Source: Cyanidioschyzon merolae (lineage: Eukaryota). From it: a stretch of DNA of 64,000 bases. Positions 7,501 to 60,810 of the stretch are shown here, piece by piece. The notes under the pieces were generated by a model, which worked only from the letters and a program-made list of their open reading frames with translations, did not search any database and had not been told where the DNA came from. Location of the stretch: the NCBI GenBank assembly GCA_000091205.1, contig AP006494.2. One strand, 5' to 3'. The position numbers and the translations under genes are program-made. Numbering within the stretch: position 1 is the stretch's first letter; each line of letters starts with the position of its first letter.

Positions 7501-7746
7501 GTCCCTGGCTTGAATCTTTTCTCCGTTCTTGTGGATGGTGAAGTAGTTGTAAAACAGTGAGAAATTGAATCGCCCGAGATGGCGCATTTCTGCGCTTTGA
7601 CGGAATCGCGTATAGCAGCGAGCCCATACACAAGCGATGAAACTGGTTCTCACGGAGCCTACGCCCGAGATGATCCATTACCTAGTCGCGGCGCTGTGAT
7701 CTTTCCGTCCCTCTGAGCTCCGATTAATGTGTTTTCTGCGGGGAAT

Positions 7747-8487: not shown

Positions 8488-8586
8488 GAAAATACGGGTT
8501 TTAGCGGTGCCCTCGTGGGTGCCCCGTTTGAACTAGAACAATCGATCTTTTTGATACAATCGTATACAGGGGTCTTACAATTTTTC

Positions 8587-10035
8587 AACTCGATCCTGTT
8601 TCACCTCCGTAGTGTTTTGCAGCAGGAGATCGAAATCTCTGTGCAATGTACCCTATAGGTCTTATACGAATCGCTTGTAGGATATATGCTTTACCATATG
8701 GTGCAAGGAGGCTTGGATTCCTCCAGCGGCTCAGTCATACCACAGTACTCTGATGCTCGAGGAAAACTGAAAGTAGCAAGTATATGCGCTCTGTGCGAAC
8801 TCCGATATTCTCAAAGACTGCTTGCGATCAACGGCACGGAAACAACCCGCTGATCACCTTAAGGAATGCAAGTATGATGACAGTAGCCGCCCTAGGTGTC
8901 TATGTTTCTCAACAGCATGTTCGTGTAGTCTGTAAAACACTGGGACAGAATCACAAAAAGTCTTGCTAAACGCACTGCCATCTTCCACCGGAATCGCAAC
9001 GACAGTGTTCCTGGAACGTCGCTATCCGTTTAAAGCGTAGGGATTTCGGTTTTGGTTTTACAGTCGACGAGACTTTTTTCGGGCGAAATGGACAGTACAT
9101 ATTTGAGTATTCGCGGAGAAGCGAGCCCGTTGTATACCCGACGGAACCCGAAGAGAACTCGGATATCATTATCTGTTCTAACTGCAGTGCATATACTTGG
9201 CGGCCTCAGTCCCGCCCTTAGACAAGGCTCAAATAATAGCACGCAATACGCCGAATCATAGAAGACTCTTCCCTGACATCTTGCGACGTTATTGTATTGG
9301 AAAACGTGGCATTGCGCCATTCCACTTGCGTTCGAGCTTTTGCAGAATCTATCGGGGTGGAGCTGTTTTTCATTCCGCCATTTACCCCGTGGCTCATCTC
9401 CATCGGAGGAGTGTTTTCTATCGTGAAACGGAATGACCGTTTCGCTGGGTGGATCGCTGAAGTGTTCAGCACACGGTAACACCGCGGCTATTTGTCTTTC
9501 TTCCACAAGTCCTTTTCCCTCCGGAAAGGTCTTCACGCCAGGACATCAACAAGTGCATTCATTCGAAGAAGTAAAAAATCCAAGAGAAAGCTATGGACAT
9601 GGAAGGCGAGGATCCTGGAAGCCGTGTGTCGCCGGCTTCGACCAAAAACGAAAAAATCCTCTCCTCGCCGACCATTGAGCGAAGAAGAGCAAATAACGAA
9701 GATGGAAAAGGGAGATATGCGAGAAATGGTGTTTGCCCAGCGGGACGATGACGAGGCTGTAGGCACACAAAGGGCATGAGTTTGAGGAGTCCTCGCAAAG
9801 ATGCGTTCAACCAGCGGCTAGAACCGCATGGAGTTCATGAACCGAGACTCGAAAGCTGCTACGAATATCAGGAGATATGCGGTGCTGAAGACGAGACCCG
9901 CGGGGCTGACAAGAGCGAGCCAACTTTCTGGGACAGCCTCTCAGACTCGAAGTGTGCAAGGAAAAGCTGAAGCCGATAGCAGGGACCCGGTCAAAGAAGG
10001 CCGGAACGCGTCTGTGAGTAAATATATACATTTAT
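8587..10035 (+). mobile_element. non-autonomous Fanzor-family element, copy #1 (~1.45 kb)
   Basis: It is collinear at nucleotide level with 48598-50035, and in reverse complement with 19285-20775 and 59400-60810. The 5' block 9540-9700 (aaaaatccaag...ggatcctgg...tcgcc) and the 3' block 9790-10035 (EFMNRDSKAATNIRRYAVLKTRPAGLTR... = degenerate RuvC-III) are shared with the long Fanzor copies. The right terminus is ...ggcgtctgtgagtaaatatatac. Confidence 0.75.
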
Positions 10036-10387
10036 CCTCATTGTTCTTGGGACATTTTTGAACATTTTGATCCCTTACCTGCCGCCGCGGTGCAATTTCG
10101 CAGCTCGAAGCTTATCGGAGTCGCCTAAATTCGCGTGCGACGTTTTTTGCGCGAGGTGCAAGTAAACTTCAGAAAAGCCACGAGTAATGCGTCATGATGC
10201 AGGACTTGCTCTTCCCTTCGTGACCACTGTCAACCATCTTTTCGCTGCAGACCATACCGCGCCAAAGTTGCGTTCGGGCTTAGCTTGCGCGCGGCTCAGC
10301 GGGCCTGCAGACCACCGGCGGCGGCGTTGCTCGCTGTCGCCTCGCGCGGCACGGACGCGTGCACCCAGCTTTGGACGGCATGCCAGC

Positions 10388-19285: not shown

Positions 19286-20775
19286 CGAGTATATATATAC
19301 CTACCCGCAGACGCCTCCCAGCCTTTTTACCTCTCGACTGTTATATCGGCTTCAGCCTGGCCTCGTAGATCCTGAGCCTGAGTCGCTGCCTCACAGCATC
19401 GGATCGCGTCAGCGCCGTAGGTCTCGTCTTCATCGGCTGAAATCGATGGTGGCGTTGAGGTCTCGGTTCACGAACTCTGTGCACTCATGGCCTCTGGTGG
19501 AACTCATCAGTGCAAGGAGTCCTCGAACGCATGCCCTCTGTGCGACTAGGGTCTCGTCATCGACCCGTCGGGCAAACGCTTTTTCTCGCCTATCTACTGC
19601 CTTCCTCTCCTTCGTGCTTTTCGTCACTTGCTACTTTTTGCCTTCGATGGGTGATGAGAAGAGGATTTTTCCGTTTGTTTTCGGCAGCGGGCGATACCGG
19701 CCCTCCAGGGTCCTCGAATTCCATATCCATTCCTTTCCCTTGCATTTTTTCTTACTGCAAATGAATGCAATTCCCTACGCCTTTAGGTGGGGACATTTCT
19801 GGAGGGGGGTGGCTTTTGCGGAAGAAAGATGAATTATAGCCCGCTGTCGCCGTGTGCTGAAAGCTTCAGCGATTCGCACAGTTGAGCGATCTTTACCTTT
19901 CTCGATATGAAAGACTTATCTGATGAGGTTTAATCACGTAGAGTACGGAGAAATGAAAAGCAGCTCTACCCCAACACATTCGTCGAAAGCTCGAACGCAA
20001 GAGGAATGGTGAAATGCTGCGTCTGACCGTAGAGGGACGCCGCCAAAGGTCAGAGGAAAGTCTTCTATGATTCGACAAAGTGGGTGCTGTTGTACGTGCC
20101 TGCTCTACGGGTGAAGCTGAAGGAGCCAAATCAATCCACCGCAGCTCGAACAGAGGATGATGTTGTCGTTCTCATCGTGCTCGATCGGACCTAGAACGAT
20201 CTCCCTCTCCGCGAATGCCCAAACATGCACCGGCCGTTCCGTCCGACGCACGTCTCATCGACTAAAACGCACGAACTGACGTCTCTCTGCTTTATACGGA
20301 TAGCGACGTTTCAGGAACGCTGTCGATGCAATCACGATGGACGATGCCCTTGGGTGAGTTAGGACTCTTCTGCGACAGTGTCCCAGGGTTTCCAGGACCA
20401 TAGGAACAAGCTGTTGAGAAAACGGAGACACCTGTGACGGCTATGACCATATCCTTTGCTTTTCTTAAGATGATCAACGTGTCGTTTTCTACCATTGACG
20501 GCAAGCAGTCTCTAAAAATATCTGTATTTGCCACAGAGCGCACATACTTGTTTCTTCCATTGTTCCTCAATCATCAGAGTCCTGTGGTATGACGGACCTG
20601 AAGGAGGAATGCTGTCCTCCATGGACACTTCAGTAACGAACATACCCCACAGGCAATTCGTCTAGAATCTGCAGAGTATATTACATAGGGATCCCGATCT
20701 GCTGCGATGCAACGCACCAGGAGTGAAACAGAATCGAGTTGACAGTCTCCAGTTCTGGGACGGGGATAACCAGCG
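19285..20775 (-). mobile_element. non-autonomous Fanzor-family element, copy #2
   Basis: It is the reverse complement of copies #1 and #5 along the full length. The RuvC-III relic EFVNRDLNATIDF is on the minus strand at about 19430-19480. The right terminus ggcgtctgcgggtaggtatatatatactcg is immediately followed by the ATGGTTATG start of the acyl-CoA synthetase gene. Confidence 0.75.
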
Positions 20776-24488: not shown

Positions 24489-25639
24489 TTTTAGAGAACT
24501 TTCAGTAAGAGTTCTTGAATATGTCCCCAATGGAGCAGGTCGAAGTTTTTCCTCGTCAATCCAGTGACGTGCATTGCTGCGTCCGTGGATCACATTGAAA
24601 GAGAAAGATCCAAAACTTGAAACGTATTTGATTTAAGCATGCCAAACCTGAGAAAAGGAGAAGCGTGGAGACTTGTACGTAAGCATTGAATGCTCGATTT
24701 CGGTCATTCGACGAGCCCTCCTTTGGGGGCATCGCAAATCATCTCGGATCCCGCAAATGAAAGAGTTCCGGCGGCTACAAGTCCAGGGAGCCACCCAAAA
24801 ACGCCTCCGAGAATCCCAAAACTATTATTGAATTCGTAAGCACGCATGGCTTCACTTCGAATGCCGAGGCCTTACATCCGAACAGAGTTCGAGAAATCGA
24901 AAACCATGAAGAGAGCGAGCAGTGCTCTCTTCCATTTTGATAGAACCCGGGTCATCGATGCCAAAAACTCGGTGCAGCACTTTCGGATTGTATGCAGCTA
25001 TGCACCCAGTTGCTTTCGAGAAAGCGTCCATTATGCTGCACTCTACCCTAAGGTTCCATTACCCATATTTTCTCTCGGAGGTAATGGTCGTTTTGTACGT
25101 TCTATGTGCGCCAAGTGCATGCCGTGAACATCCGCTGTATGGCCTAAACCGCTAGTGCGGATGCAGCATCGGGACAGTACGGCTTTGCCTTACAACTGAG
25201 GTCGTCGGCTCGAGGCGTGCTGCTCTTGACACAAGGTCGGGATTCATAATCATTCTGGGAGCCTGCAATCTGCGCTGATAGACGTCCTGCCTGCGACAGC
25301 GCGAAGCGATATACTAGGAGATGACTGCATCGTGGGCGACGCCCAGACGCAGCACATCCGCTCCTTGCCCCAGTATAAACGGCTTCGCAGACGAGCTGCT
25401 CAGGTCTCACTATAGCGCAAGCCACTGCCGAGTCTCACTGTAGCGCGAGCCAGGCAGCCTCGTCCGGGTTGCGGGATCTCCCTACTGGAAGGTATACTTT
25501 CGCGAATGCGGCAAACTTTTTCCTCTTCTCACTTTTACCGAAGAGGTGGGGATTGTTATCTCGTCGCTAGTTTGTGCCTAGTTTCTGTTCTTTTTTCTAT
25601 AATGCGCTCGATACGTGCACATCCATATCTCGCAGGCAT

Positions 25640-28168
25640 TAGACACGACGCATATCTCACCGCTGATGGGAAACGCGACCCCTCTCAGATGTAGACTCGC
25701 ACCGGAAACACGCGAAGCAGCATGTGGAGCATGCACTGTTGCTGGGGACGAGGTCCATGTACGACAACATCATGGTCTACCGATATTAAGCGTGTTGCTC
25801 TAACGCATGCTTTCTATTTGCGTTCAAGTCCTAGCAAAATATAGTGTTTGTTCGGAATTCTGCTTCAGCCCACATGCGAGCGTGTCCAAGAGTTTTTTCG
25901 TTTTTTTAGCATACGCGTTCGAAGTGCGCTCACTTTCAAAAATCAAAATTCAAGGAAAAGTTACGGACATACAAGTCCAGGATCCTGGAGGCCCAGTGTC
26001 GCCAGGTTCGACACGAAATGAAAAACAATGCTGAGTCCAGAGGAACAGGAGAAGACGAAGAAGCAGATGCAGGAGGCCAGGCGTCAAAAGCTGCATGAGA
26101 AGCGACAGTATGACGAGATGGCAATGGAAGCCTTTCTTCTACGTCAAATAAATGATCCGTACGAACAAAAGTTGCGAGAGGCTATCAGAAACCGTGTCGA
26201 GTCGTACTCCATGAGTATTATCAAGGCTTCGTCTTGGCTAATGCGTAAGGTGAGTAAGATGTACCATGACGTTACGGGCATCAAAATAGTCGAGGTTCCG
26301 GAGGAATTTTTCAACAAGACATTTGCTCGCCACCCCATGTTTGGCACAGAGTAGGCGTCGACGAGAAATGAGCGAGTGCATGCCCTCTACGAAAACCACG
26401 CTGAGTACCGCTTCAACGGTATTCGATACAGGGGTGATTCGCGTATTCACGAATAGGGAGCAATGCAGTGCGCTACGAACCTGAGGCACCAAATGATTAT
26501 GAACCTCGAACGTTTCGTGATTCGCTCCATCTTTGCGCTGTACCCGGGCCTCCCTCGTAACGGGATATGGAACACTACCAATGCCATCACAAACGGTTGC
26601 CAGCATGAAGATGAGATCGAATTCTTCAGCAAGCAGACATTGCACATTATCAGGAATGAAGATTCTGTTATCCGTGGGGCTGTTCAAGAGCACCGTGCGG
26701 TTCTTTGGCTGGTCAACCAAATAGAAAAGGTATCAGATATGAGAAAAGATGGAGAAGGATGTCGTCCCCTCATCCTCTGCTTTTTCGTGTTTTTGGACCG
26801 AGAAATCGAACGCAAGGCGGAGATGGAGCTGGGTGTGGGTAAAAAGGAAGAAGCAGAGAAACGGAAGGTTGCGCTTCTGAGGAAGCGCCTCAGTGTCGTT
26901 CCGTTGTTCAACATCAAGTCACATTTTGTGACAATCGACTCCGCAGCCCTTTACGTCACCATGAAGGAGATCAGTCCGGAGTTCGATGTGAGGAAGATAG
27001 AATTCACCGGTGAAAACCGGGAGACGTACTGTAAGAATATCTTTGATTTCAAACGTCTGAAAAAAATACGAAAAAGATATTCACAGGGACGATCGACAGC
27101 GATGGAGTATCCATATGCGTACCCTTTCGGCGCTTGAAGACAGATTGTCCTATTCCACCCTCGATATCGCCCGTGACGAAGCATGAGGATAGGAAGGAGG
27201 CGAATCTGGCGACGCAGGAGGTGCAGGAGAACGACTTTGTTGGAGGCGCGGGCCCTAGGAACATGAATATCATAACCACCGCTGCACCCAAGTGTGCGGA
27301 AGATGGAATCGACGGCAACATACGTTAGAAAGACATGCGTCTGTTAAAGCTCTCAAGAGCGAGATATTACCGAGATTCGGGAATAATGAATACGAGGAAA
27401 AAGACTGAGACGTGAAATGCAGGAGGGAATGAGCACTTGGAGGCGCTCAGCCCGGTACCTCTCAACGGAGCGGACTTTCAAGCTTTTCTAGAGTTCATGG
27501 AAACTCGTGCTGCTCATGACGAGGAGCTGTGGAAAGAGTGTACAGAGCACCGGCGGGCTCGTCAGCGTATGAACCTGTATAGAGGGGGCAGCATGCATTC
27601 GCCAAGATCATGAGTCAGTTGAGCGCCCTCAAGGAAGACGAGAGTCAAAAGCTCGTAGTAGCATATCTAGCAGGGCGCTGGGCACCCAACAAAGGTAGCA
27701 TACCCACTTCGTCGACGCGTGCCTACGTGAAGTGCGCACGCCGTTTTTTCCCAGTACCGATGGATGACTTTCGAAAATCCGACCCACACTACGAGTTGGG
27801 GGTGCATACTTCAGAGCTTAGGGATGGAGCGCAAGCAGCAGTGCACGAGAGCGATAGAAAAGTACGAAGAGCTGACGGAGCAGGAAACTGCACCGAGGAC
27901 CCGAGTTCGAGGTCTCCTTCCAACGGCGCGTTCAACCAGCAGCAATTAAATCAAGGAGTTCGTGAACCGTGACTTTCATGCTGCTATCAATTTAAGACGA
28001 TGTTCGGTGTTAAAGACGAGACCCGTAGGGCTGACACGCGCGATCCAACTCTGTGGGGCACCCTCTTAGTCTCAAGATGGTACAAGGAGAAGCAGGAACC
28101 GATCGCAAGCGCCTTGTCAAAAATGGCCGGAAATCGTCTTTGAGTGGGCGTGTCTAAATATACTCCAT
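25640..28168 (+). mobile_element. Fanzor (eukaryotic TnpB-like) element, long copy A, degenerate
   Basis: It is collinear with copy B from the left region (25640-25990 vs 42115-42440) through the protein-coding body to the conserved 3' block (27945-28168). The terminus is ...gtgtctaaatatactcc. Confidence 0.75.
26028..28066 (+). pseudogene. Fanzor/TnpB-like RuvC nuclease gene, copy A (multiple frameshifts and stops; RuvC-I Asp replaced)
   Basis: Segments in three frames are homologous to copy B: the N-terminal DPYEQKLREAI...FFVFLDRE, then [13 protein letters not shown]...NIFDFKRL. The RuvC-I region reads NDFVGGAGPRNMNIITTAAP, with GAGP where copy B has GADPG. The Zn-finger region is KCARRF and RuvC-III is EFVNRDFHAAINLRRCSVLKTRPVGLTRA. 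Confidence 0.7.
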
Positions 28169-28639
28169 GATTGTAGAACGTTTATCGTTTTGCAGAACAA
28201 GCTGAACAAACCTCACGGGATGCCGTCCCCGCTCCACGACTACGGACATACGTCAAGGCCGCAGCGGTTTGCGCGTTACCACTGCGCGTACTGCAAGTGC
28301 GTGCGCGACGGAGTCTGCACGACGCTTTGCGAACACGTTGGAGCTCTCTGCGTTCTATTGCTTCTCTCTGAAGGTGTTCACCTCACTATCGTTCTTTCCG
28401 AAAGTTTTCGCAGCAGCCTCTTGTTGCCTTTGAGAATGAGTCGGGATAACCAAGGTTTGCAACCACAAAGTCACAGCACGGCGTTCTGTGTGTTTGCGCC
28501 GTGGCCTCGAAACCGGAGTGCGGCCGGGACGCAGCGCGACCTGCGAGTCGGATGTCAGCGCTGGCCCCGTTTTTCCGCAGGTGGTGTCTCCATCTCCGCA
28601 GAACACGCCCAAAGGGAGAGGACGCTGAGGTCTCTGAAA

Positions 28640-38219: not shown

Positions 38220-38640
38220 GAACAGTGCCATACTTTTAGCGACTGCAACACACCGCCATGCACATCACAACGTCTCCGCAGACAGTAGTCGTCATCCGGA
38301 TCCCGTTGCACACGGATGCAGTGCAGAGGAACGATGCGCGCACCAGCAAACGCCTTTCAGAAAGCGAACGACGCCAGCGGTGTAGAGTAGTGGCGGCAAC
38401 CGCGCCCTGGACAATACGTCTCCAGCTTAGGTGCAGACGCCTCCTCGTCTTTCTCGACCGGCCACCTACTACTGCCTCCAACTTTTTCTCATATAGTTCC
38501 ACTTTGAGTGATTGTCCGACAAAATTCTCTCTGGTCAGCTCCGCAGGTCTTGTATCCATCATTGCACCAAGCCCGGAGACTAACCAACAAGTCACTTGCG
38601 GCCTTCCGAGAAAAGATAACGAATTAACGGTACATTAACG
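38220..38640 (-). mobile_element. Fanzor-family 3' fragment (#4), 5'-truncated at the LINE junction
   Basis: Its reverse complement matches copy B 44640-44905, including the C-terminal tail TRENFVGQSLKVELYEKKLEAVVGGRSRKTRRRLHLSWRR and ~100 bp beyond ggcgtctgcac. A degenerate RuvC-III remnant lies at about 38610-38635. Confidence 0.65.
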
Positions 38641-40934: not shown

Positions 40935-41954
40935 ATGTACACCTGGTTCAGTCGGAGTTTCATGCAGACCCCAACGCACCGCAAAAACACTTGGATGAAA
41001 TCAACGCAGATTTGGCTGAAGCGCCTCTTAGGAGACAACACGCTCCAATCGTTCCCCAGAAATATAGAATTCTCCCGTCTCCTGAAGCGAACGGTCCAAA
41101 CAACAGTACGGGAATGTAGACATGCAGTCAGTCGCGCGAGTGACGCCGGCTTGACTCTATACTGGAACTACAACCTAGCATACACATGCAAGTACTGGTG
41201 GGAGGCGCTGGGGTTCCCGGGACTTGCTCGCGGCAGCCAGTGGCTCGCCAAAATCCGCGTTGGTGGCTTCTGGCTGGCACCGGCTCTAAGCCGTATAGGA
41301 ACACCGGAATCGCACTGGGAATCACACTGTCCCTGCTGTGGAGACGAGATCCCCGAGACGATGACATATTTAGGCTTACAGTGCCCGCGCTGGAAACAGG
41401 AGCTGGACGTCACCGTGATATTCAAAGGCCGGACACTCACTTTGAGTGTAGCACTGGCAACTGATGGTCTGTTAACGGAGCCTCAGCGCTCATTAGTTGC
41501 GAACAAACTCACACTCTACCTTCTAGGCGGAAGGTCCAGCGAATCGGATGCGCACACGGGCCCAGTGCTCTCTGCGCCTACCTACTGGTGGGTGTCAAGC
41601 AGAAACCCGCATTGCCAACCGACAACAACGCATTCCATGCATGATCACGAAGGAGAGAGGCGGCTCCCAGGATTCATTCTAACAGTCAAGTTTCTCCAGC
41701 GTGTCGTGCGGCGAAGACAAGCCTGCATCCGCAGACTATCCAAGCACAAACTGACGATGAGACCGGATTCTACGTCGGGTGAACCATGCCTCGAGCCGAC
41801 GCCCTCTGTGGTATGGAAAAGCCGTTCTGTCTCCGTGCAGCGACCGCACCGGCGCTTTAGGCGCCATTGCTGTCGCTTTCGGCAGGCTCGGCACACGATA
41901 GGACGTATGAAACGACCAGAATATCCAAAACGAAGTACAGGTAATGTAACTTGA
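40935..41954 (+). pseudogene. LINE ORF2 C-terminal region with CCHC zinc knuckle
   Basis: CPCCGDEIPETMTYLGLQCPRW... lies downstream of the RT in the same element, after a frame break. Confidence 0.5.
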
Positions 41955-42493
41955 GTGTAAGGGGTTGATGGATACCTCACCGCGCACTGAAAAAACACAA
42001 AAAGAGAGAAAGAAAAGAAAAATGCGCACAATCGGAGAACGCTGGCACAAGGAAACGTTTTGTTCATTCTAAAAATCGCACTCGTTAAGCGCACCTGGGA
42101 GATCAGGCGGTCACCTGACACGACGTGCATGTCGCCATTGAAGGGAAACGCGATCCTGATCAGGAGCGTACTGCTCTACTGTACAAAATTTTATTTGCGT
42201 TAAAGTCGTAGCAAAATACAGTTTTTCAATTCATTTGTGTTTCAACCCTCAAACAAGTCTAGTCAAGTGTTTGTTCGCAGTATATTATATAAGGGTTCAA
42301 AGAGCGTTCTTTTTCAAAAAACTAAAAAAAAGGAAACCTATGAAAAAGCAAGTCGACGATCCTGGAGGTCCAGGGCCGCAGGCTGCTAGAAAAAAACAAA
42401 AACACTGCCGAGTCCAGAAGAAAATGAAGAGAAGGAGGACTGAAAGGGGAGGCTCTACGTCGAAGGCGGCAAGAAAGACAACTGTACGACGAG

Positions 42494-44760
42494 ATGGTGG
42501 TGAAAGCCGGTCTTCTTGAACATATCAAGGATCCGTACAGGGAAAAGTTGCGAGACGCTATCAAAAAACGTCTCGATTCGTACTCCAAGAGTATTGTCAA
42601 GGCGTCGTCAGGACTGATGCATGTGACGAGGGAGATGTATGAAGACGTGACGCACATCGGAACGGTCGAGATTCCGGACGAGTTTTTCGACAAGACCTTT
42701 ATTCGTCATGTGATGCTTGGTACAGAGGAAGCACGGAAGGAAAATGAGCTAGTGCATGCCCTCCACGAAAACTTCGCGGAATTCCGCTTCGAGGGCACTC
42801 GGTACAAGGGTGACTCGGATATGTACACATATGGGGCAATGAAGTACATTACGAACCTGAAGAACCATTTGACAGAGAACCTCGAACGTTTCATGAAACG
42901 CGTCGTGTTTGCACTCTACCCAGGCATCTCTTGCAATGGAAAATGGGCGATTATCAATGGCATCACGAACGATCGAAAGTATGAAGATGAGATCGAATTT
43001 GTCGACAGGAAGGCGCCGAGAGTGAGCGCGAAAGAAGCTTCTGCGATCCGCGCGGTTTTACAAGAGCATCGTGCGCTACTGGGGCTGGCGAATCCAACAG
43101 ACAAGATATCAGAGTTGAAAAAAGATAAGGAAAGATACTATCGCCTCGTCCTGCGGTATTTCGTGTTTCTGGATCGTTAACTCGAACGCTAAGCGGAGAT
43201 GAAGCTGAGTGAAGAGACAAATGAAGAGTGGGAGAGACGGAAGGCTTTCCTAATGGGGAAGCGCTTCAACGGCGTTCCAATGTGCAAGATCAAGTCACAT
43301 TTTGTGACTATCGACTCCGCAGTCCTTCATGGCATCATGAAGGAGATCAGTCCGGAGTTCAGTGTCAGCAGGGAGGAATTCTCCGGTGAAAACCGGGAGA
43401 CGCACTGGAAGAATATCTTCGATTTCAAACGCCTCTAAGTAAGCAAACAAAGGGTATTTACAGGGTTGATCGAAACAGATGGAGTAGCCTTGTGTGTACA
43501 CTATCGGCGCTTGAAGACAGATCGTCCAGCACCGCCCGTTACGAAGGATGGAGAAAAGGAGGAGGCTGGTCCTGCGACACAGGAGGTGGAGGATAATGTC
43601 CTTGTCGTTGACGCGGCGAAGGATGAGGATCAGAAGGAAGCGGGTCTTGCGATGCAGGAAGTGCATGAGAAGGACCTTGTCGTTGACGTCACGAAGTATG
43701 AAGATGAGAAGGAGGCGGAACCTGCGATGCAGAATGTGGAGGATAACGACCTTATCGTTGATGCGGCGGAGCATGAGGAAAACAAAGAGGAGGATTCTGC
43801 GACGCAGGAAGTAGAGGATAACGACCTTGTCGTTAACGCGGAGAAGCATGAAGAAACCAAGAAGGCAGGTCCTGTGACACAGAAAGTGCAGGGTAACGAC
43901 TTTGTCGTTGGCGCGGACCCTGGGAATACGAATATTATAGCCGTCGCTGTACCCAAGCGTGCGGAAGATGGTGCTGACGGTAACTTGCGTCAGAAAGACA
44001 TGCGTCTGTTGAGGTTCTCGAGAGCAAGATACTATCGAGAATCCTGTATAATGAATGCGAGGAAGAAAATCGTCAAATGGAATTCAGGAATGAAAGATCA
44101 CCTGGAAGCTTTGAGCGAGGTGACGAGTCGAGGAGCGGACTTTAAAGCTTTTCGGGAGTTCATGAAAGTTCGCGTTGCCCATTGGGATGCACTGGGGGAG
44201 GAGTATACCAAGCCCCCGGTGGGCTCGTTTGCGTATGAATTTGTATTTTGGGAAGCAGCGGGCGTTCGCGAATTTTTTCAATCAATTGAGTGCCCTGAAG
44301 GATGATGAAAGTCAGAGGCTCGTAGTAGCGTACGGGGCAGGGCAATGGAAGACCCAAAAAGGAACTACGCCAGCTCCAACGACGAGGGTGTACAAGGAGT
44401 GCGCAAGGCGTTTTGTTACAATACCTGTAGATGAGTTCCGAACATCGTATACACACCACGACTTGGGGTGTACACTTCAGAGCGTGGAGTTAGAAAAGTG
44501 CCCGCGGAGCCTTGAGGATATAAAAAAGTATGGACCGCTGACGGTAGAGCAAAATGGAAAGGATGTCGAAAGTTCGTGGACTACTTGCATTAATAAGTAG
44601 AACCAGTGATGGTAAGAAACGTATGGAGTTTGTGAACCGAGATTTTAATGCCGCTATCAATATAAGGAAATGTGCGGTGCTGGAGAATAGACCTCCAGAG
44701 TGGACAAGAGAGAACTTTATTGGACAACCTCTCAAAGTGGAACTATATGCGAAAAAGTTT
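42494..44760 (+). pseudogene. Fanzor/TnpB-like RuvC nuclease gene, copy B (two in-frame TAA stops and at least 3 frameshifts; introns not excluded)
   Basis: The N-terminal region is MVVKAGLLEHIKDPYREKLRDAI...RYFVFLDR. RuvC-I is [19 protein letters not shown] (43900-43950). It is followed by ...LVVAYGAGQW... and the Zn-finger-like region YKECARRF...GC...KCP. RuvC-III is MEFVNRDFNAAINIRKCAVL (44624-44665), and the C-terminal tail is TRENFIGQPLKVELYAKKFEEVVCGRSRKTRRRL. Confidence 0.75.
43563..43862 (+). repeat. 4 x 75-bp in-frame tandem repeat inside Fanzor copy B, immediately upstream of RuvC-I
   Basis: The units are [75 protein letters not shown] and [25 protein letters not shown]. The native fifth unit [21 protein letters not shown] follows. 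Copy A has a single unit. Confidence 0.9.
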
Positions 44761-44889
44761 GAAGAAGTGGTGTGTGGCCGGTCGAGAAAAACGAGGAGGC
44801 GTCTGCACGTCAGTTGGCGACGATTTGTCTATGGCGCCGGCCGCTACTACTGCACGCCGTTGGCGTCTTTCGACTTTCGAACGGCGTTG

Positions 44890-46959
44890 ATGATGCCCTG
44901 CGTTCGTATGAGGCGTTCGTTTTCGAAAATAGCGCTGTGTTCCGCTGCGGCTTTTGTTTCGTCTGCAACGGTGCTGTTGCTTGGCGGGTATGACTCGCGA
45001 TGGTACACCCCTTTGGTTGCGAGAGCGCACTCGGCTAGCGTGGCGTCTGTGGACCACGGGCCGTTGCCGGTGCTCGAGACGCCACCGCGTCGTCACGCGC
45101 AGCTGCGAGTGTTAAAAGAGAGCGGCATGCGTTATGAATCTGTCCAAAAACGGAAAGCCGAAGCTGGAGGCGACGGCTCATCAAAAGAGGCTATGAGTGC
45201 AGTGGTACCGAGCGCTTTGCCGGAAGACGGCCTCTTCGATATTCTCGTCGTTGGTGGCGGCGCGACCGGCTCCGGCGTTGCACTCGACGCAACGCTCCGT
45301 GGACTCCGAGTTGCTCTAGTAGAGCGGAACGATTTCGCGTCTGGCACGTCGTCTCGTTCGACGAAACTCATTCATGGTGGTGTCCGGTACTTGGAAAAGG
45401 CGTTCTTTCGTGCTGACCCTGCGCAACTAAAGCTCGTCTTCGAAGCTTTGCATGAGCGAGCGATCATGCTCCGTCAAGCGCCTCACTTGACACAACCGCT
45501 GCCGACGATCCTGCCGTGTTACAAATGGTGGGAGATCCCATTCTATTGGGCTGGGCTCAAGGCCTACGACTTTCTGGCCATCGCAGGCAATGGCGCGCTC
45601 TATATGAGCAAGTTCCTCTCGGCGGCGGAAGCGCGGCGTCAGTTTCCGACCCTTTCAGCGCGCCGTGGCCGGGACGGCGCCACCCTCAAAGGCAGTATTG
45701 TGTACTACGATGGCCAGATGGATGACGCGCGATTCAATGTGACGCTTGCAGTGACGGCGGCGCTACACGGGGCAGTGATTGCAAATCACACTGAAGTTTC
45801 GGGCTTGATCAAGGATGCCTCAACTGGAAAGGTCATTGGCGCAACAGTTCGTGATCGTTTCACCGGAGAAGAATTTCCGGTCTACGCGCGAGTGATTGTG
45901 AACGCAACCGGCCCGTTTGCGGATCGGATACGAGCGATGGACGAGGGACCTGAGGCGCTCGGTCCCCAACGCATGATAGTTCCGTCATCTGGGGTGCACG
46001 TTACTCTGCCCAGTTACTATTCTCCGGAAGGCATGGGTTTGATTGTACCAAAAACGCGCGACGGTCGGGTTGTCTTCATGTTGCCATGGTTGGGATCGAC
46101 AATTGCCGGCACCACGGATTCAAGCACGGAGATTACGGACATGCCACGTCCGCATGAGGCGGAGATTGAGTTTATCTTAGACGCGCTTCGTGATTATCTG
46201 AACGTGGAAGTGCGTCGAAAGGATGTTCAGAGCGCATGGAGTGGTATTCGACCGCTTGCAATAGACCCCAAAGCGAAGGACACACAGAATATCCTTCGTG
46301 AGCACACAGTCCACGTCTCTGGCTCGGGTCTGCTGACCATCGCGGGTGGCAAATGGACGACTTACCGAAAAATGGCACAGGACACTGTGGATACTGCTAT
46401 CAAAGTTGCAATGTTGGAGTCTCGCGTGAAGCACAAGTGCTTGACAGAGAAGGTCATCCTCACCGGAGGTCATACTTATGACCCGTCGTATTTCGCTTTT
46501 CTCACGCAGCACTATGAAAGAGTGAAATACTCTGTCAGTAAGGGTGCCAAACTCCAGACCACGACGCTGGACGTAGACATAGCGCAACATCTTGCTCGAG
46601 CCTACGGAGATCAAGCTTACAAGATCTGCGATATTGCGAGCAGGGAAGATGCTGGTTACGGCAAACGCATTGCGCATGGCTACCCGTATATTGAAGCAGA
46701 GGTCGTGTACGCAGCTGAAAACGAATACTGTGAGACAGCCCAGGACTTTTTGGCGAGACGCTCGCGTCTTGCGTTTCTGAACGCCCGGGCGGCGAAAGAG
46801 GCGCTTCCCCGCATCGCTGAGATTCTCGCTGAGATCCACGGCTGGAGTCGCACCCGCTTGCAGACGGAAATGAAGGAGGCAATGGAGTTTCTCGAGACGT
46901 TTGAGTCCGGTCGTACGACTGGTGAGGTCGGTGAACAGGTTGAAGCAGTGGCCGCATAA
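44890..46959 (+). CDS. FAD-dependent glycerol-3-phosphate dehydrogenase (mitochondrial GPD2/GUT2-like)
   Basis: An N-terminal presequence is followed by DILVVGGGATGSGVALDATLRGLRVALVERNDFASGTSSRSTKLIHGGVRYLE and the C-terminal G3P-oxidase domain. The ORF track fuses it in-frame to the Fanzor 3' end. The start is placed at the first Met after the element, and MRRSF at 44911 is an alternative. Confidence 0.85.
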   Translation: MMPCVRMRRSFSKIALCSAAAFVSSATVLLLGGYDSRWYTPLVARAHSASVASVDHGPLPVLETPPRRHAQLRVLKESGMRYESVQKRKAEAGGDGSSKEAMSAVVPSALPEDGLFDILVVGGGATGSGVALDATLRGLRVALVERNDFASGTSSRSTKLIHGGVRYLEKAFFRADPAQLKLVFEALHERAIMLRQAPHLTQPLPTILPCYKWWEIPFYWAGLKAYDFLAIAGNGALYMSKFLSAAEARRQFPTLSARRGRDGATLKGSIVYYDGQMDDARFNVTLAVTAALHGAVIANHTEVSGLIKDASTGKVIGATVRDRFTGEEFPVYARVIVNATGPFADRIRAMDEGPEALGPQRMIVPSSGVHVTLPSYYSPEGMGLIVPKTRDGRVVFMLPWLGSTIAGTTDSSTEITDMPRPHEAEIEFILDALRDYLNVEVRRKDVQSAWSGIRPLAIDPKAKDTQNILREHTVHVSGSGLLTIAGGKWTTYRKMAQDTVDTAIKVAMLESRVKHKCLTEKVILTGGHTYDPSYFAFLTQHYERVKYSVSKGAKLQTTTLDVDIAQHLARAYGDQAYKICDIASREDAGYGKRIAHGYPYIEAEVVYAAENEYCETAQDFLARRSRLAFLNARAAKEALPRIAEILAEIHGWSRTRLQTEMKEAMEFLETFESGRTTGEVGEQVEAVAA

Positions 46960-48597
46960 TGACGTGAGCGCAGAGCGTATGTATTTCAAAAGTATCATCT
47001 TCTTGATCGACGAGACTGGCAAGTCACCTTGGTAACTAGGAGCGAGCGCGTGCCCTTTTACCCAGTCCCTGGTTCCAAACTGGAAACGATCGGGCGTACG
47101 GATGGATTTCGTATGCGTTGAACAGCGTCGCTGGTGCTTAGGCTTGGAGCGTTCGTCCTCATGAGCTGCTGAATGCTCTGCGATCAAGATATCTGTAAAC
47201 ATATCGTGCATGAGTGGCTGATCATGCGTGGCACCGAGAGCGCGCTGCAGCTGGATGAACCTGGAATCGACAAGCTGCGGTCTAGCTTGCACGCGGTGCC
47301 GCGCTAGAGTATCCTGGGTTCTTGGCAGCTCTCGAAACTGAGTTTGTACTGGACGGGAGACTCCCGAAGGCGGACACGTTAAGAAAAAGTAGCTCGCTGG
47401 CTGTACCGGACATTGACACTGCTTTTCCTGTTTCTCAGTGCCAAGAAACGAGTAATAGACAATAACGCGCATTTCCCTGAGTTGCTATCGTGGTTTTCGG
47501 CACCAGGCTGAGCCGACGGCTGAACACACGAGCACGACAGTTGACCCTGCTCCCAGAATCCTGTGCATCGATGCATCACCGCTGCGCTGCGCACTTGTTC
47601 GCCATCATTTCTTCTCGGGATCGAGCGCATTCCCAGGCGCATCTTTCGCTTGAACATGCCAGTCGCAGTGCAGTAACGAAACTGCATGAAATGGACGCGC
47701 ATGGGAAGCGCGATGTTCACGAGAGCGTCGTCACGCGCTGCGCCTTGTCAAAGGCAGATGCGATCAGTAACGCGACAAACGTTTTACGATCGTGGAGTAT
47801 GTCTATATATGTGTAGACCCGCCCCTAGACGCCCCCCGGCCTTTTGCGACCGGTCTCCTGTTATCCGCTTCAGTCTATGCAGACACACTTCGCGCCTGAG
47901 AGGCTACACCATGGAGTTGGATGGACCCAGCTCCTTGGGTCTCGTCTACAGAATCACACATCCTCTGATACCGATTGCGGCGTTGACTGCTCTACGTTCA
48001 CGAAGTCCTTGCGTGCAGTTCTGTTAGTTGAACTCACTATTGCAAGGGTTGCGAGGACATGTGCCCTCTGTGCCACTACAGTCTCCTGTACCTCCACTGT
48101 TCTTCTTCTTGTTTGTCACTTGCTCTCCTTGGCTCTATGGTCGGCGAGTAGAGGATTTTTCGGTTTTTTAATCGAACCCGGCGCCACCGGGCCTCCATGA
48201 TCTTTGACTTTTATATTTGTAACTTTCACTTAGATTATTTATTCTTTTTAAATGAACGCACTTCGAGAGCATCTGTTATAAACCGCGACAAAGAACTTGG
48301 TGACGCGCATCTGAGGGATGGAACACAATTCAGATGAAAGACCGCAAGTGTGCACAACGAGTGCAGTTCGTTTGTGCGCGGGGCCCTTTGGAGGTAACTG
48401 GTACAATATGTATTCTTTTCTTGCGTATTTCAGAGCAAACGATATGTCTGTTCGCACCATCGCATCCGCGCATGCGCCTTCGCGGAATACCGGGTTCAGA
48501 AGCTCTTCTCCTTTATCTTTTGGGACGAAATAGACAACTCTTCTAGTCTTTTAACTCAGTTTTGGTCCGCGCACGCTGAATGGAATAGAATGCTATT

Positions 48598-50035
48598 TGG
48601 TAGTGGATAGCACGAGATCGACGTCAAGATGCAATGCACCCTATAGATCGCAGACGAATTCAGTATAGGATATGTATTCTATGCTGACCAGTACACGGAG
48701 CACTGGATTCCTCTTTAAGATCAGTGATACTACAGTACTCTGATGGTTGAGGAACACTGAACGAAAGAAGTGCATGCGCTCTGGGACAAGAACCAATATG
48801 CCCACGGCGTGCTTGCGATCAATGCTAGGAAACGACCCGTTGATCACTTTAGGGAACGTAAAAGTGCCGATCGTAGTCGCCACGGGCGTCTCTGTTTCTC
48901 AAAGGCTTGTTTGCGTGCTCCTGGAAACACCGGGATACAGTCGCCTAGAAGAATCCCAGCTCACTCACTACCACCATCCACCGAAAGCTGAACGACAGCG
49001 TTACGGGAGCGTTGCGATCTGTGTAGAGTACAGGGACGTCGATGGGTCCCAGTCGATGAGACATCCCTCGGAAGATACCATCGAAGCGTATAAGGATATT
49101 CGTGGAGCAGGGCACCTATTGTGCGCACCATCAAACTCGAAGAGACTAACGACATCATCGACTTTTCTAGCAGCAGTGGACTCATTTGGCAGCCTCACTT
49201 TCGCTGCTAGAGAAGCTCCATCTAACAGCACCAAACTCTTTGCCGAATCATTGAAGACTTTTCCCTGACGTCCGGCGACGTCATTCTATTAAACAACATG
49301 GAATTTTACCATTCCACTTGCGTCCGAGTATTTGCCCGTACTCTCGAAGTGTAGAGCTGGTTTTCACACCCGAGTACGCTCCATGCTTCAACCCATCGAA
49401 GGAGTGTTTTCTGCTGTGAAACGTAATGATCGCTCCATCGGGCGAATTGCTGACGCGTTCTCAGCGCACGGCGACGCGGGGACACATGTGGCCTCTCTTG
49501 CACAAGTCCTACCTCCTCCGGTGATGTCCTCACCGACGAGCATAGACAAGTGCGTTCATTTGAAGAAATAAAAAATCCAAGGGAAAGTCATGTAAATGGA
49601 AATCGAAGATCCTAGAGAGGCATCATCGCCGAGTTCGACAAAAAAATCCTCTTCTCGCCAAACATCAAGCGAAGAAGAACGACTGAGAAAGGAGAAAAAG
49701 AAGAAGAAGGCAGGAGATAGACCAGAGAAATGCTTGCCTAACCAGGCGATGACGAGATTGTGGCGCCACAGCGAGCACGACTTCTAGCAATCCTTGCATT
49801 GGTGAGTTCAACCGGCGTCAATGCACGCAAAGAGCTCGTGAACCGAGAATTCAACGTCGCCATCAGTATCAGACGATTTTTGGTGCTGAAAACGAGACCC
49901 ACGGAGCTAATGCGATCCAACTTCGTGGGCAGCCCCTCAACTTCGAAGAAATACCTGAATAAACTGAAACCGATTGCAGGCGGGCGGGGGGTCAGAAAAT
50001 GCCCGGAGGCGTCTACATGCGGGTATCTATATTTA
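48598..50035 (+). mobile_element. non-autonomous Fanzor-family element, copy #5
   Basis: It is collinear with copy #1 throughout. The 5' block lies at 49520-49700 and the 3' block at 49835-50035, with ELVNREFNVAISIRRFLVLKTRPTELMRSNFVG. The terminus is ggcgtctacatgcgggtatctatattta. Confidence 0.75.
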
Positions 50036-50273
50036 CTCTCTGTGGTCTTGAAACGTTTACCGTTTCAATGCTCACACATATTGCAACAGCCATATCGCGT
50101 CATCGCACAGGCGATGTGTCCATCGGCAACGCCTAGCTGTTGATCAAACGATCCGGCGGGCGCGATATGCCACCCTCGGAGTGCGATCAAACATCCAGGC
50201 TCACAGGCGGACGCTGCGAGTGTACTTCCCTCGCAAGCCGCTGAGGTGTGCCTAGCGCTCGCTTTGAAGCAGT

Positions 50274-53596: not shown

Positions 53597-54067
53597 GAGT
53601 TCAACAGATATGCGCAGCTCGTGCGCCCGATTTCGAATTGAAACGCTCCGAGATTCCGTTCTGCGGTGCTGTGCCCGGCGCCGCCCGGTACCCCTTTACG
53701 TGTGTCGACCCGGCGGCCGTTCAGGCGCTGCAAAGCGGGTGCATCTCTCCAGGGCACCGGATTTCCCTGTTTCGCAGTTTGTTGACACCCAGAAGGGATG
53801 TTTCCGTTTGGTCGCTTGATATCAGCGCTCGGAGTAGCATCCATCGTTCCTCGCCCTACTTCCAAATTCCACTACCGACAGTCGCCCTCAGAGGTGCTGG
53901 TGATTTTCCACCTTATATCGTGCGTCAAGTGCCCGTCGTGAGCGGCCTCGATAGCCTGTATAGCGCAAGCGCGAATACAGTACGTAAACGGAACGGCTTT
54001 GTCATACTGCTGAAGGCGTGGGCTCGAAGTACAGGGAGCGGGATGCACCACCGAGGCAGGCGTCTGC

Positions 54068-54195
54068 CGTGGGCTCAGTATCCGCAGGAACGCTGAACAA
54101 ATTGAAGCCCCGTTTCCGCAGGCAAATACTGTGCTGAAGGCTTAGGCTCAGCATCCGCAGGAACGCTGAACAAATTGAAGCCCCGTTTCCATGGA
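54068..54195. repeat. two ~48-bp direct repeats (..catccgcaggaacgctgaacaaattgaagccccgtttcc..) separated by ~35 bp
   Basis: Direct reading of 54068-54115 and 54150-54195. Intergenic, upstream of the RING-protein gene. Confidence 0.8.
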
Positions 54196-54935
54196 GAAAC
54201 ACCGCGGTCAATCCAGATATACGAATTAGGCAACCCCGAGTGACGGCGGGCGCTTCTGTCGTGTCCGGTGGCCTGGTGAACCTCCGAAGAAACCTGGGTG
54301 GATGACTCAGTATTGCGCCACGAAACGCGGCAGCAACGTGTTGGCAGCGGCGGTACTCGTTGGAGGCAACTCTTGAGAGCAGCGTTGCCGGTTTTCTATC
54401 CATGCGCGTCGTGAAACCATCGAGCTGTGCAGTTCACCAGGAAACGGCAAGAATATACGAAATCGAAAAGTTTATGCAGGCGTGCTTTCTGTACTAGTCT
54501 TTCGGATGTAGTGCGGGCAGCGCGATGACCGTCGCTCTCTCTGCTGGGCAGCTGCCGCGGCGCATCTGCACTGAACTGCTTGCTCACACGCTGGGTGACG
54601 CCTCGACGAAGGATGCAGCTGCGCTTCCGTGACTGAAAGGCCACCGACTGCAGCGATCGAGTCGTGCGCTAGTGCATTTGCGTGACGCCCCAAGCTCAGC
54701 GCTGAATACATCATTAGGTTTCTTGGCAGACATGGTCAGCCATTTGTGCACAGGCTCATTGAGATCGAAATCGCAGGTGTCAACCGCGCGCTCATTTGCC
54801 GCCAAATACAGGCGCGTGGTGCGGTCGCCAGACGAGTGCTGGAGCAAGCAGCAGCTCGCAGGGGGAGCTCACGGATCAGGCGCTTCTCCAGTCGCCACTT
54901 TGCTGGTGTCAGTATAACAGCAGGATCAAAGGAAA

Positions 54936-58544: not shown

Positions 58545-59399
58545 CGGCAGCTATATTGATCGACTGGCGCTGTGAAGCAGCAGCGCTTTGCTTTTGCTCC
58601 GTTGCTGATTCTGCTGCGGAAACGTTGACGGACGCGTCTCAATGCTTGTTCATCGAATGGGCGCATTAGTCGCTGCTCTGACATACAACACAGATTCCCC
58701 ATGTTGTTCAACGTTGACGATGCATTCGATAGGGCAAGTGGCGGCACCCCGGAGACCCGCCTCCGCGCAATGGCGTGCATGGACCGCGTTCTTGATCTTG
58801 CCAATCAATGAGCTTCAGCGTGTGTCGCAGTTCATGGATGAGTGCCGATCGACAAGAAAAAGTTCAAGCCATACTCATTGACGTATCCGTAAATGTCACC
58901 GCATTCGGAATCTCTCGAAGCACAAGAAAGCAAAATCGCATCCGGGAGATGCTGGTTCGATCCATCGAGCTCAAGTCACTTTACTTGCAACGCCAATACG
59001 GACACCGTCTGGCATAGCAGAGTCCCGTCGACGGCAGACAGGCTGTATTCTATGCACCAAATCATGCCACCAGCGCCGAAGAGACCCATTCCAGCGTCTG
59101 GTGTACGACGTCTCGAAAACCGAGGTCATCCGTGATGCGGCAAAGCCGTTCCGCTTCCGTCTGCGCCCGCAGCAGGTACTCACGGCAACTTCAGCACCTG
59201 GAGGATCATAGGAATGAACCATGATCCTTAAAGGAAAGTATGGGTGGTTGCTGGTGAAGAGCTTTACGATCAAGTGAGCCATAACTGACGTTCTCCTGGA
59301 CGTCGATGGCCATGGAGCACAATCGAGGATGCCCAGGTTCCCGTGAACGATGCGACATCTGCATTTGCACACATGTCAGTGAAACAAGAAATGTCCCAC

Positions 59400-60810
59400 G
59401 ACCACTTATTGTAAATGAGTACCACAAGCGCACACGCCTCACAGCTTTTTCTGACCGGCCGCCTGCAATTAGTTTCAGTTTCTGCTTGTACACATCGAGC
59501 GTGAGAGGCTGCCCCACAGGTTTGCCTCGTGTCAGCTCTGCGGCTCTTTTCTGCAACACCACAAATCGTTTGATATTGATGACGGTGGTAAAGTCTCAGT
59601 TCACGAACTCCATGCGGGTATTTTCTCTGGGAGAACCTATCAGTGGAAAGAGTCCTCGAACTCGTGCCATTTTGTGCGGTGGCAGCTATACGCGCTTTTC
59701 TATCGCGAAAGCGCTCCGCTGCCCTCTCTCGAACTCGAACTTCTATAGCATACATATCAGCTCATTCCCTGTTTTTTTGCATGAACTACTTCTTCATGCC
59801 CTTCGGTGAGGACGTTCCCGAAGGAAGCAGGACTTGCGGAAGAGAGACCGCATGTGTCTCGGTGTAATCGCGTGTCTCCGTGTGTTGAACGCTTCAGCGA
59901 TTCGCCCAGTGGAGCGATCGTCACGTTTCATAAAGACAATGCTCATTAGATGCGGTTGAACCACGGAGTGTATAGACGAACGTAAAGCAGCTCTATTCTC
60001 GGATAGATTCGGCAAAAGCTCGAACGCGATTGGAACGGTTAGATGCGACGTCGCCCAATAGAATGACGTCGTCACGGTTCTCGAGACAAGTGTTCAATGA
60101 TTCGACAAAGTGGTTGGTGCTGTTGTATGGCCTTTCTCTACGGGCGAAACTGAGTCCGCCAAATGAGTCCACTAAAGCTAGAACAGATGATGATGCCGTT
60201 GGTCTCTTCGCGTTCGATGGTAGGCACAACGGGCGCCCTGCCCCGCGAATACCCATGTACGCTCCGAGCGCTTTATCCGAAGCAAGTCTCATCGACTGGC
60301 AAAACAAATCGACGTCCATGTGCTTCATTCGGATCGCAACGTTCCAGGAACTTTGCTGTGGGTGTGATTTCGGTGGAAGATGGCCGTACATGACATTGGT
60401 CGTCTTTTTTGTTACTGTATCCCAGTGTTTTCAGGATCACACGAACTAGCCGCCGAGAATCAGAGATGCACGTGACGACTATAATCCTCTGCTTTGCTTT
60501 CCGTGAGGTAATCAAGGAGTTAATTTTTTGTACAATTCATCGCAAGCAGTCTTCAAGATTGTCGGTTTTCGGCACGGAGCACATATACTTGTTTCTTTCA
60601 GTGTTCATCAAGCATCAGCGTGCTGGAGCGTGACGAATCTGAAGGAGGCAAAGCAGCACTCCCAGCGCTCTACAGTAAAGAGTATATATCCTACCGGAAA
60701 TTCGTCTACGATCTATCGAATACATTGCATCATGATGTCGACCGCCTGATGTATATTGTGAAAAAGCATCCGATTCCATACAGCGGGATGAAAGTAATAG
60801 AGTTGAAACA
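59400..60810 (-). mobile_element. non-autonomous Fanzor-family element, copy #6
   Basis: It is the reverse complement of copy #5 along about 1.4 kb. The RuvC-III relic at about 59575-59615 reads MEFVN*DFTTVINI. The tail is KPVGQPLTLDVYKQKLKLIAGGRSEKAVRRV. Confidence 0.7.

Follow-up and report, generated by a model that had tools for sequence, protein, structure and literature searches.

The 3′ block shared by eight Fanzor1 element copies in a window of the Cyanidioschyzon merolae genome: nuclease codons, a stop codon and a short right end

The 3′ block and the copies that share it

The subject of this work is a family of decayed repeats in a 64,000-nucleotide stretch of Cyanidioschyzon merolae DNA (contig AP006494.2 of assembly GCA_000091205.1), referred to below as the window, and in particular the segment at positions 44615-44905, which lies at the 3′ end of one of them. 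The window has ~50-58% G+C and long intron-less open reading frames (ORFs) on both strands, and its repeats are members either of CMe-1A, a Fanzor1 family already in the literature, or of a sister subtype that is linked to a DDE_3 (Tc1/mariner-like) transposase. A preliminary description of the sequence had listed the block in seven copies and proposed it as the scaffold of a guide RNA (omega-RNA). Self-BLAST and MAFFT alignment recovered it at all seven places and added an unlisted eighth at about 47762-48010(-), and all eight blocks are matched in tblastn searches with the CMe-1 protein within residues 609-734, at 43-83% identity (about 610-734 for the seven listed first). The block consists of the last ~70-95 Fanzor1 codons, which include the RuvC-III catalytic motif and the C-terminal tail, followed by the stop codon and a non-coding right end of only ~55-65 nt.

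Within 44615-44905, the remnant of the Fanzor1 C-terminal coding sequence occupies 44615-44829(+), which corresponds to about residues 664-734 and to 215 of the 291 nt (~74%); it is 88% identical to the CMe-1A consensus by BLASTN, and tblastn aligns residues 641-734 at 83%. The RuvC-III motif EFVNRDFNAAINI is located at 44626-44661(+) and is followed by RPPEW..NFIGQPL and the tail. The former stop codon at 44830-44832(+) is TAG in the consensus and TAT in this copy. Beyond it lies the non-coding A-type right end (44833-44895, +), in which a remnant of a stop-proximal hairpin, the core CGCTACTACTGCACGC (44842-44857, +) and the terminal hairpin CGACTTTCGAACGGCG (44871-44886, +) can be recognized, the last of these coinciding with the end of the consensus. 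Past 44886 there are ~9 more semi-conserved nucleotides (TTGATGATG), and after these host sequence.

The A-type right end, which is the end of the CMe-1A consensus, is found in the copies with blocks at 44615-44905 and 38351-38567(-), and the other six copies carry a B-type end, in two of which an in-frame TGA stands directly after CGTCTG with a TATATA run behind it. The two terminus subtypes distinguished earlier are real, but the first of them does not end at ‘tatata’ as had been thought, because conservation runs ~45-50 nt past it, through TACTC..TGGTCGTGGAACRTTT.TCGTTTCA.

Two of the eight copies are long: one at ~42067-44895(+), of the CMe-1A type and with the A-type end described above, and one at ~25012-28198(+), which tblastn and self-comparison show to hold a full-length but disrupted Fanzor1 gene with a B-type block at 27903-28198. 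Four are short elements with B-type blocks. The first of these, a ~1.5-kb element at 8585-10072(+), has its block at 9771-10072, made of decayed C-terminal codons, the TGA in frame immediately behind CGTCTG, a run of TATATA and a right end that reaches to about 10072; the others lie at ~19256-20742(-) (block 19256-19555), ~48574-50073(+) (block 49769-50073) and ~59375-60785(-) (block 59375-59772). A consensus of the four restores the reading frame (...VRGLLALMSSTSGNNRMEFVNRDFNAAINIRRFVVLKTRPAELTRANFVGQPLRLEVY...). A solo internal-deletion derivative of ~0.55 kb at ~47762-48342(-) (B-type block 47762-48010) has its 3′ block fused to the Fanzor 5′ untranslated region (UTR) and N-terminal codons and stands head-to-head with the 48574-50073 element. 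The remaining copy, which had been placed at 38220-38640(-), is present but narrower than that: it is a 5′-truncated A-type fragment at 38351-38567(-) that starts at consensus position 2950, runs to 3169, lacks the RuvC-III motif and is 80% identical to 44672-44888.

All eight copies are disrupted by frameshifts, stops or deletions and are pseudogenes, so that an intact nuclease ORF is absent from the window. Pairwise identity is low, at only 65-80% between the copies and 58-80% where the block is considered. The short copies had been thought to have lost all the rest of the ORF; they are in fact internal-deletion derivatives, in which the Fanzor 5′ UTR and ~20-40 N-terminal codons are joined to the last ~90 codons, and four of them also retain a DDE_3 remnant. 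Six copies without the ORF retain the block, five of them with one common deletion junction, which equals one event, and one as a truncation. Retention of the block in non-autonomous copies thus reflects a single internal-deletion event that was amplified later, together with one truncated fragment.

The orthologous sites of the elements at 8585-10072 and 19256-20742 hold no element in two relatives, where the orthologous intergenic regions are short (~570 bp upstream of purH). The purH protein of the window is 82-84% identical to those of these relatives, Cyanidiococcus yangmingshanensis and GCA_041825655.1, 99% identical to hot-spring metagenome proteins and 72% to Cyanidium. Since the sites are empty, the two elements are lineage-specific, even though the copies differ from one another by ~30%.

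Family identity

CMe-1A was described by Bao & Jurka 2013 (PMC3627910) as a Fanzor1 family of C. merolae with ~150 copies at ~80% identity to a 3169-bp consensus; it was reported without terminal inverted repeats (TIRs), was assigned to no class, and no guide RNA has been described for it. The consensus used here was taken from the supplement of that paper. Its 734-amino acid (aa) ORF occupies positions 906-3107 and its stop codon 3108-3110, which leaves 59 nt before the consensus end. By BLASTN, 42067-44865 is 84-88% identical to the consensus and 25012-28066 is 79-80% identical, the matches of these long copies covering 2.3-2.7 kb; the 38351-38567(-) fragment is 82.7% identical to positions 2950-3169, and the B-type blocks are 66-73% identical. 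The window copies accordingly share with CMe-1A the same 734-aa Fanzor1, the same 3′ end and the published ~80% identity to the consensus, and differ from it in that six of the eight have the other (B-type) right end and that, in four of these six, a remnant of a DDE_3 transposase gene is attached.

Fragments of the 42067-44895 copy, including FVNRDFNAAINI, show RuvC-I, RuvC-II and RuvC-III in TnpB/Fanzor order. The RuvC-I Asp, the RuvC-II Glu and the RuvC-III Asp (in NRDFNAAINI) are all present in the CMe-1A consensus and in fragments of that copy; in the 25012-28198 copy the RuvC-I Asp is gone. An alignment of the clade profile with a canonical green-algal Fanzor1 from the same supplement has an hhalign probability of 96.8% (E 2.8e-10, 263 columns), with the RuvC-I and RuvC-II motifs in register. 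The reconstructed Fanzor has no significant match in Pfam (only a TNB domain at E 0.23-0.51), and a profile search of PDB with the Fanzor clade returned no match, so that Fanzor1 membership rests on the hhalign result and on the literature. The CxxC pairs of a C4 zinc ribbon between RuvC-II and RuvC-III are absent from CMe-1 and its relatives, which have only scattered His and Cys residues there (for example, THHELGC...EKC). The C4 zinc ribbon is part of the motif defined by Bao & Jurka, yet the same authors list CMe-1 as a Fanzor1 member (PMC3627910).

Conservation of the block

A metagenome scan provided 80 loci with CMe-1A-type 3′ ends, none of which holds the full 734-aa ORF (the longest is 569 aa), and 59 non-redundant copies were analysed. 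Majority-base conservation in these is 0.912, 0.925 and 0.827 at codon positions 1, 2 and 3, and 0.808 in the 3′ UTR. In a pile-up along the whole element, third positions stand at 0.80-0.845 in the block versus 0.80-0.87 across nearly the whole ORF (0.91 in one interval), and the 5′ non-coding region at 0.78-0.85. Neither the synonymous sites of the block nor its 3′ UTR sites are conserved in this profile beyond the neutral level of the element. The phylogeny of the copies is star-like, with a mean distance of 0.20 and almost no clusters, so the codon-position bias reflects selection at the protein level; for the same reason an attempt to strip private mutations by clustering the copies into subfamily consensuses failed.

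The same picture emerges from the four short elements of the window, in which the coding part of the block averages 66.7% pairwise identity, its right end 57.7%, the transposase-like part 69.2% and the flanks ~37%; the special conservation that had been ascribed to the block is not borne out by these values. At the protein level, the tail motif RP-x-x-L-x-R..GQPL is kept in homologues of only 31-43% identity, among them the intact proteins P0175-P0178, which keep FVNRDFNAAINIRRC..L..RP-x-x-L-x-R...G..L. Codon periodicity is weakest in the tail codons. The block is therefore not specially conserved and stands out only as the one segment that is present in every copy. It has decayed no faster and no more slowly than the remainder of each element, and the likeness between copies is due to common descent and past purifying selection on the protein.

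RNA secondary structure

The alignments offer little sign of a conserved RNA structure. RNAalifold recovered only four invariant pairs in the 3′ UTR; with 56-59 copies it found nothing for consensus positions 2990-3169 and 3030-3169, and for 2880-3169 only five near-invariant pairs, located in the coding part. The consensus itself can form a stop-codon hairpin (UAGGGCG..CGCCACUA) and a terminal hairpin. Pairing in these two across the copies equals that of shuffled alignments (80.3% versus 80.4% paired, with covariation of 0.095 versus 0.107), and G-U is not in excess over A-C among the changed cells (23:25). A long-range stem of 9 bp (3043-3051 with 3124-3132) was considered and rejected, as about half of the copies have the change G3050A, which disrupts it and is not compensated, and as the B-type lacks it.

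Folding of the individual 3′ UTRs is only mildly better than that of shuffles (mean z = -0.72), and in intact relatives the 3′ UTRs show no clear gain in structure over coding controls. When the CMe-1 3′ end is aligned to 3′ UTRs from distant relatives, the match is too poor to argue for homology, and the one shared 12-mer is within chance. A search of the whole window against Rfam gave no match at gathering thresholds.

The small hairpin-like element that was said to vary in a partly compensatory way is a hexamer (CGCGGG, CGTAGG, TCCAGA and others) made up of two variable codons between an invariant Pro and Leu/Arg. It can pair with CTGGAG seven bases upstream, fully so in the A-type only. 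In 60 A-type copies this CTGGAG/CTCCAG helix shows breaks and 0 compensatory changes. Overall, no conserved secondary structure with covariation support was found in the block.

Transposase genes and element ends

Upstream of the deleted Fanzor gene in the 8585-10072 element, and in the same orientation, lies a decayed DDE_3 (Tc1/mariner-IS630-like) transposase gene at 8585-9550(+), and equivalent genes occupy 19606-20742(-), 48574-49560 and 59781-60785(-) in the other short elements. The consensus of the four restores ...IPPYTPWFNxIGGVFSIVKR and matches Pfam PF13358 at E 1.6e-11. Three intact metagenome relatives (L087, L088 and L090) have the order TIR, DDE_3, Fanzor1, 194-263 nt of non-coding sequence, TIR, with TIRs of 28-41 bp; in two of them the transposase gene upstream of Fanzor1 lies at 871-1284 (L088) and 412-1599 (L090). 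In a further relative, L091, the 3′ flank measures 197 nt, and neither a DDE_3 gene nor TIRs were identified within its short contig.

Mariner/Tc1 elements with Fanzor1, such as PUl-1, were described by Bao & Jurka 2013, and Fanzor1c is associated with Mariner/Tc1 (Jiang et al. 2023, PMC10530073). The arrangement of a transposase followed by Fanzor1 between TIRs is intact in L087, L088 and L090 and is represented by pseudogenes in four window copies. These differ from PUl-1-type elements in being internally deleted in Fanzor1 and in having TIRs and target-site duplications that lack a confident definition. A search for TIRs at the ends of the short window elements gave no significant direct or inverted match, and the B-type right end weakly resembles the reverse complement of the CMe-1A left end (scores of 17-19 versus 12.7+/-2 in shuffles). 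The DDE_3 link and the TIR-bearing relatives are new with respect to the 2013 description of an unclassified family without TIRs, and are of specialist interest.

The flank on the left side also shows a pattern. In the 40 nt upstream of the CMe-1A left end (CGATGACAAAACG...), many copies (L014, L026, L036, L065, L081, L085 and others) have a GC-rich stretch and then a T-rich run (...GGCG.C....TTTTCTTTC). This flank resembles the element’s own right-end sequence in direct orientation, a likeness that may come from a target or target-adjacent motif (TAM) preference, from an under-called left boundary or from an end-to-end arrangement of elements.

Guide RNA and alternative explanations

On the evidence above, the block is most probably, and with good confidence, the 3′-terminal part of elements that became inactive long ago, in a DNA transposon family that carries Fanzor1 and has a sister subtype with the composition [DDE_3 transposase]-[Fanzor1] that is represented here mostly by internal-deletion derivatives. 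As to the guide RNA, the block does have the position expected of an omega-RNA, and the position only, in that it ends at the transposon right end. The guide RNAs of characterised TnpB/Fanzor systems come from the 3′ end next to the right end (PMC10432273, PMC10530073). In Spizellomyces punctatus, transcripts extend 14-15 nt past the right end, and the guide-RNA region is retained at 134 ORF-less ‘ghost’ loci (Saito et al. 2023, PMC10432273). Fanzor guide RNAs are formed by the 3′ non-coding region that abuts the right end and lie further downstream of the ORF than those of TnpB (Jiang et al. 2023, PMC10530073). The literature searched contains no paper that ties Fanzor guide RNAs to red algae.

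By analogy with these systems, transcripts of the active ancestors probably ran through the stop codon and right end into the flank and were processed into a guide (omega) RNA. The scaffold would be the right-end segment behind the stop codon, perhaps reaching some way into the weakly constrained tail codons, and the guide would be the first ~15-20 nt of the flank, directing Fanzor1 to matching DNA adjacent to a TAM. A guide RNA that came from the last ~60-130 nt of the block is likely on this analogy, and in the 42067-44895 copy the interval 44833-44895 would be the only realistic place for its scaffold. The ends in the window are relics, which could at most act as ‘ghost’ guide loci if the genome encodes an intact Fanzor1 at another place. 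The comparison that comes nearest is SpuFz1 of S. punctatus (PMC10432273), a Fanzor1 for which many ORF-less loci likewise keep the ends and the guide-RNA region. Its RNA, however, was sequenced and shown to guide cleavage and its copies are well preserved, whereas the window copies are decayed and have ~55-65 nt of non-coding sequence without covariation support.

Several observations weigh against reading the block as a coding remnant with a right end that bears no special constraint, and hint at constraint at the nucleic-acid level near its end. The 16-nt non-coding core CGCCACTACTGTACAC is conserved at ~0.9 versus a background of ~0.81, the sole exception in the profile, and it is complementary to CAGTAGTGG in the tail codons. 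At consensus 3150-3169 (window 44867-44886), the A-type right end occurs in two haplotypes, CGTTTTTCTTTTGAAAGGCG and CGTTCGACTTTCGAACGGCG, which are separated by five linked differences and each of which folds its own terminal hairpin in its own register; the second is a perfect 7-bp palindrome, which a single template switch (quasi-palindrome correction) could produce instead of selection. The 266-nt consensus block folds better than shuffles (z = -2.5, 3/200), unlike the copy in the window (z = -0.77). The CTGGAG/CTCCAG helix reaches 70% pairing in the eight window copies, a borderline signal (5/500 shuffles) of a kind to be expected in 5-25% of unconstrained alignments. The covariation tests are weakened throughout, most of the compared copies being pseudogenes, and a scaffold may have reached far into the coding sequence.

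Among the more specific readings, a tentative one takes the ~55-70 nt behind the stop codon as an unusually compact Fanzor1 scaffold, composed of the stop-codon hairpin, the core CCACUACUGUACAC and the terminal hairpin and maybe pairing back to the tail codons; the ORF-less copies would then be ‘ghost’ loci, with guides taken from the 5′ regions of host genes, and the family would be mobilised by a DDE_3 transposase. This is possible but doubtful as it stands.

It is rather unlikely that the right end acts at the DNA level only, for transposase binding or as a terminal repeat, and that there is no guide RNA, for instance because a clade without the canonical zinc ribbon is not RNA-guided. The 28-41-bp TIRs around DDE_3 and Fanzor1 in the relatives, the likeness of the B-type right end to the reverse complement of the CMe-1A left end, the lack of covariation and of a G-U bias, and the missing CxxC pairs are all consistent with such a role. 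Against it stand the intact RuvC triad of the family consensus and the 194-263 nt of non-coding sequence that the relatives keep between stop codon and TIR, far above what a TIR needs. Moreover, every Fanzor tested so far binds RNA from the right-end region (PMC10432273, PMC10530073).

A further reading, taken from the preliminary description, makes a scaffold of the block in its entirety: all ~250-290 nt between the RuvC-III codons and the end of the element would be under RNA-level selection and would for that reason be kept in ORF-less copies. In TnpB systems of the IS200/IS605 group, such as ISDra2, the scaffold of the omega-RNA (or reRNA) is formed by the 3′ end of the nuclease gene together with the right end, and the adjacent flank provides the guide. 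This model of a scaffold overlapping the 3′ end of the ORF reportedly goes back to Karvelis 2021 and Altae-Tran 2021, and the position of the block fits it. Where the TnpB scaffold truly overlaps the 3′ end of the ORF, however, the overlapped codons of the window block vary in ordinary coding fashion. Retention in six ORF-less copies, the folding of the consensus, the long-range complementarity of 9 bp between tail codons and 3′ UTR core and the weak covariation in one 6-bp helix speak for a scaffold of this extent. They are outweighed by third codon positions at background level, by a protein motif kept in distant homologues, by the RNAalifold results, by the uncompensated loss of the long-range stem, by hairpins that pair no better than shuffles, and by the origin of the ORF-less copies in one deletion and one truncation. 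In characterised Fanzors, moreover, it is chiefly non-coding sequence beyond the ORF that gives rise to the guide RNA. A scaffold comprising the whole block is therefore improbable. What stands of the original proposal is that the copies are Fanzor1 elements, that the block lies at their 3′ end beside the right end, and that ORF-less ‘ghost’ loci have a precedent in S. punctatus; a scaffold of 250-290 nt that is ~74% coding is unsupported. Of the three refuting conditions named in the preliminary description, the two that sequence analysis can address, unconserved synonymous sites and the lack of a conserved secondary structure, both came out against such a scaffold.

Exaptation of the right ends as promoters or 5′ leaders, which would explain their persistence directly upstream of host genes, can be set aside as very improbable: in an estimated ~6 of the 8 copies, an ORF on the same strand follows at 0-450 nt from the right end (at ~10072, ~19256(-), ~28198, ~44895, ~50073 and ~47762(-); examples are purH at 10187, the acyl-CoA synthetase gene, a ClpS-like ORF at 28190, G3PDH at ~44893 and an ORF at 50274) and the B-type ends have a TATA-like run ~45-50 nt before the end, as do L087, L088 and L090, but a proportion of six in eight cannot be told from the ~50% that chance would give in a compact genome. 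The right ends also lose sequence at least as quickly as other parts of the element (57.7% identity), and in related species the genes work without the two checked elements, which are missing at the orthologous sites.

Other repeats and neighbouring genes

Fragments resembling the 5′ ~635 bp of CMe-1A, which is the TE-N2_CMe repeat of Bao & Jurka, occur at 41517-41953(-), 53855-54027(+) and 25012-25681(+), the first of these in inverted orientation just upstream of the 42067-44895 copy. Within the Fanzor ORF of that copy, a 75-bp unit is repeated ~5 times in tandem at 43537-43911; the repeats encode acidic units of 25 aa in the linker before RuvC-I, and P0136, a near-intact protein of 752 aa from a metagenome, has a similar expansion. 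Two short local direct repeats at 7657-7845 (79 nt, spacing 110, 76% identity) and 54072-54211 (67 nt, spacing 73, 84% identity) appear unrelated to the Fanzor elements.

The element ends also affect the apparent limits of host genes. The change from TAG to TAT at 44830-44832 opens an ORF of 801 aa at 44554-46959(+), in which the Fanzor tail is fused to a mitochondrial-type G3P dehydrogenase (G3PDH). The acyl-CoA synthetase ORF at 16958-19285(-) has its apparent ATG inside the right end of the 19256-20742(-) element and measures 775 aa versus 694-736 aa in its orthologues. Annotation of this region calls for caution, as host-gene ORFs that run into element ends appear artificially extended, the 44554-46959 ORF and the acyl-CoA synthetase start being examples.

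Significance for the family and for C. merolae

As it stands, the finding is one of routine repeat annotation, comprising eight dead copies of a published transposon family. The link to DDE_3 and TIRs would classify the CMe-1A family, which has so far been reported as unclassified. If an intact CMe-1 Fanzor1 encoded elsewhere uses these ends as guide loci, C. merolae would be convenient for testing the native role of eukaryotic RNA-guided nucleases. The alga is haploid, has a tiny genome and is tractable by homologous recombination, and it would offer a native system for the host function of Fanzor if the compact right end does serve as a scaffold.

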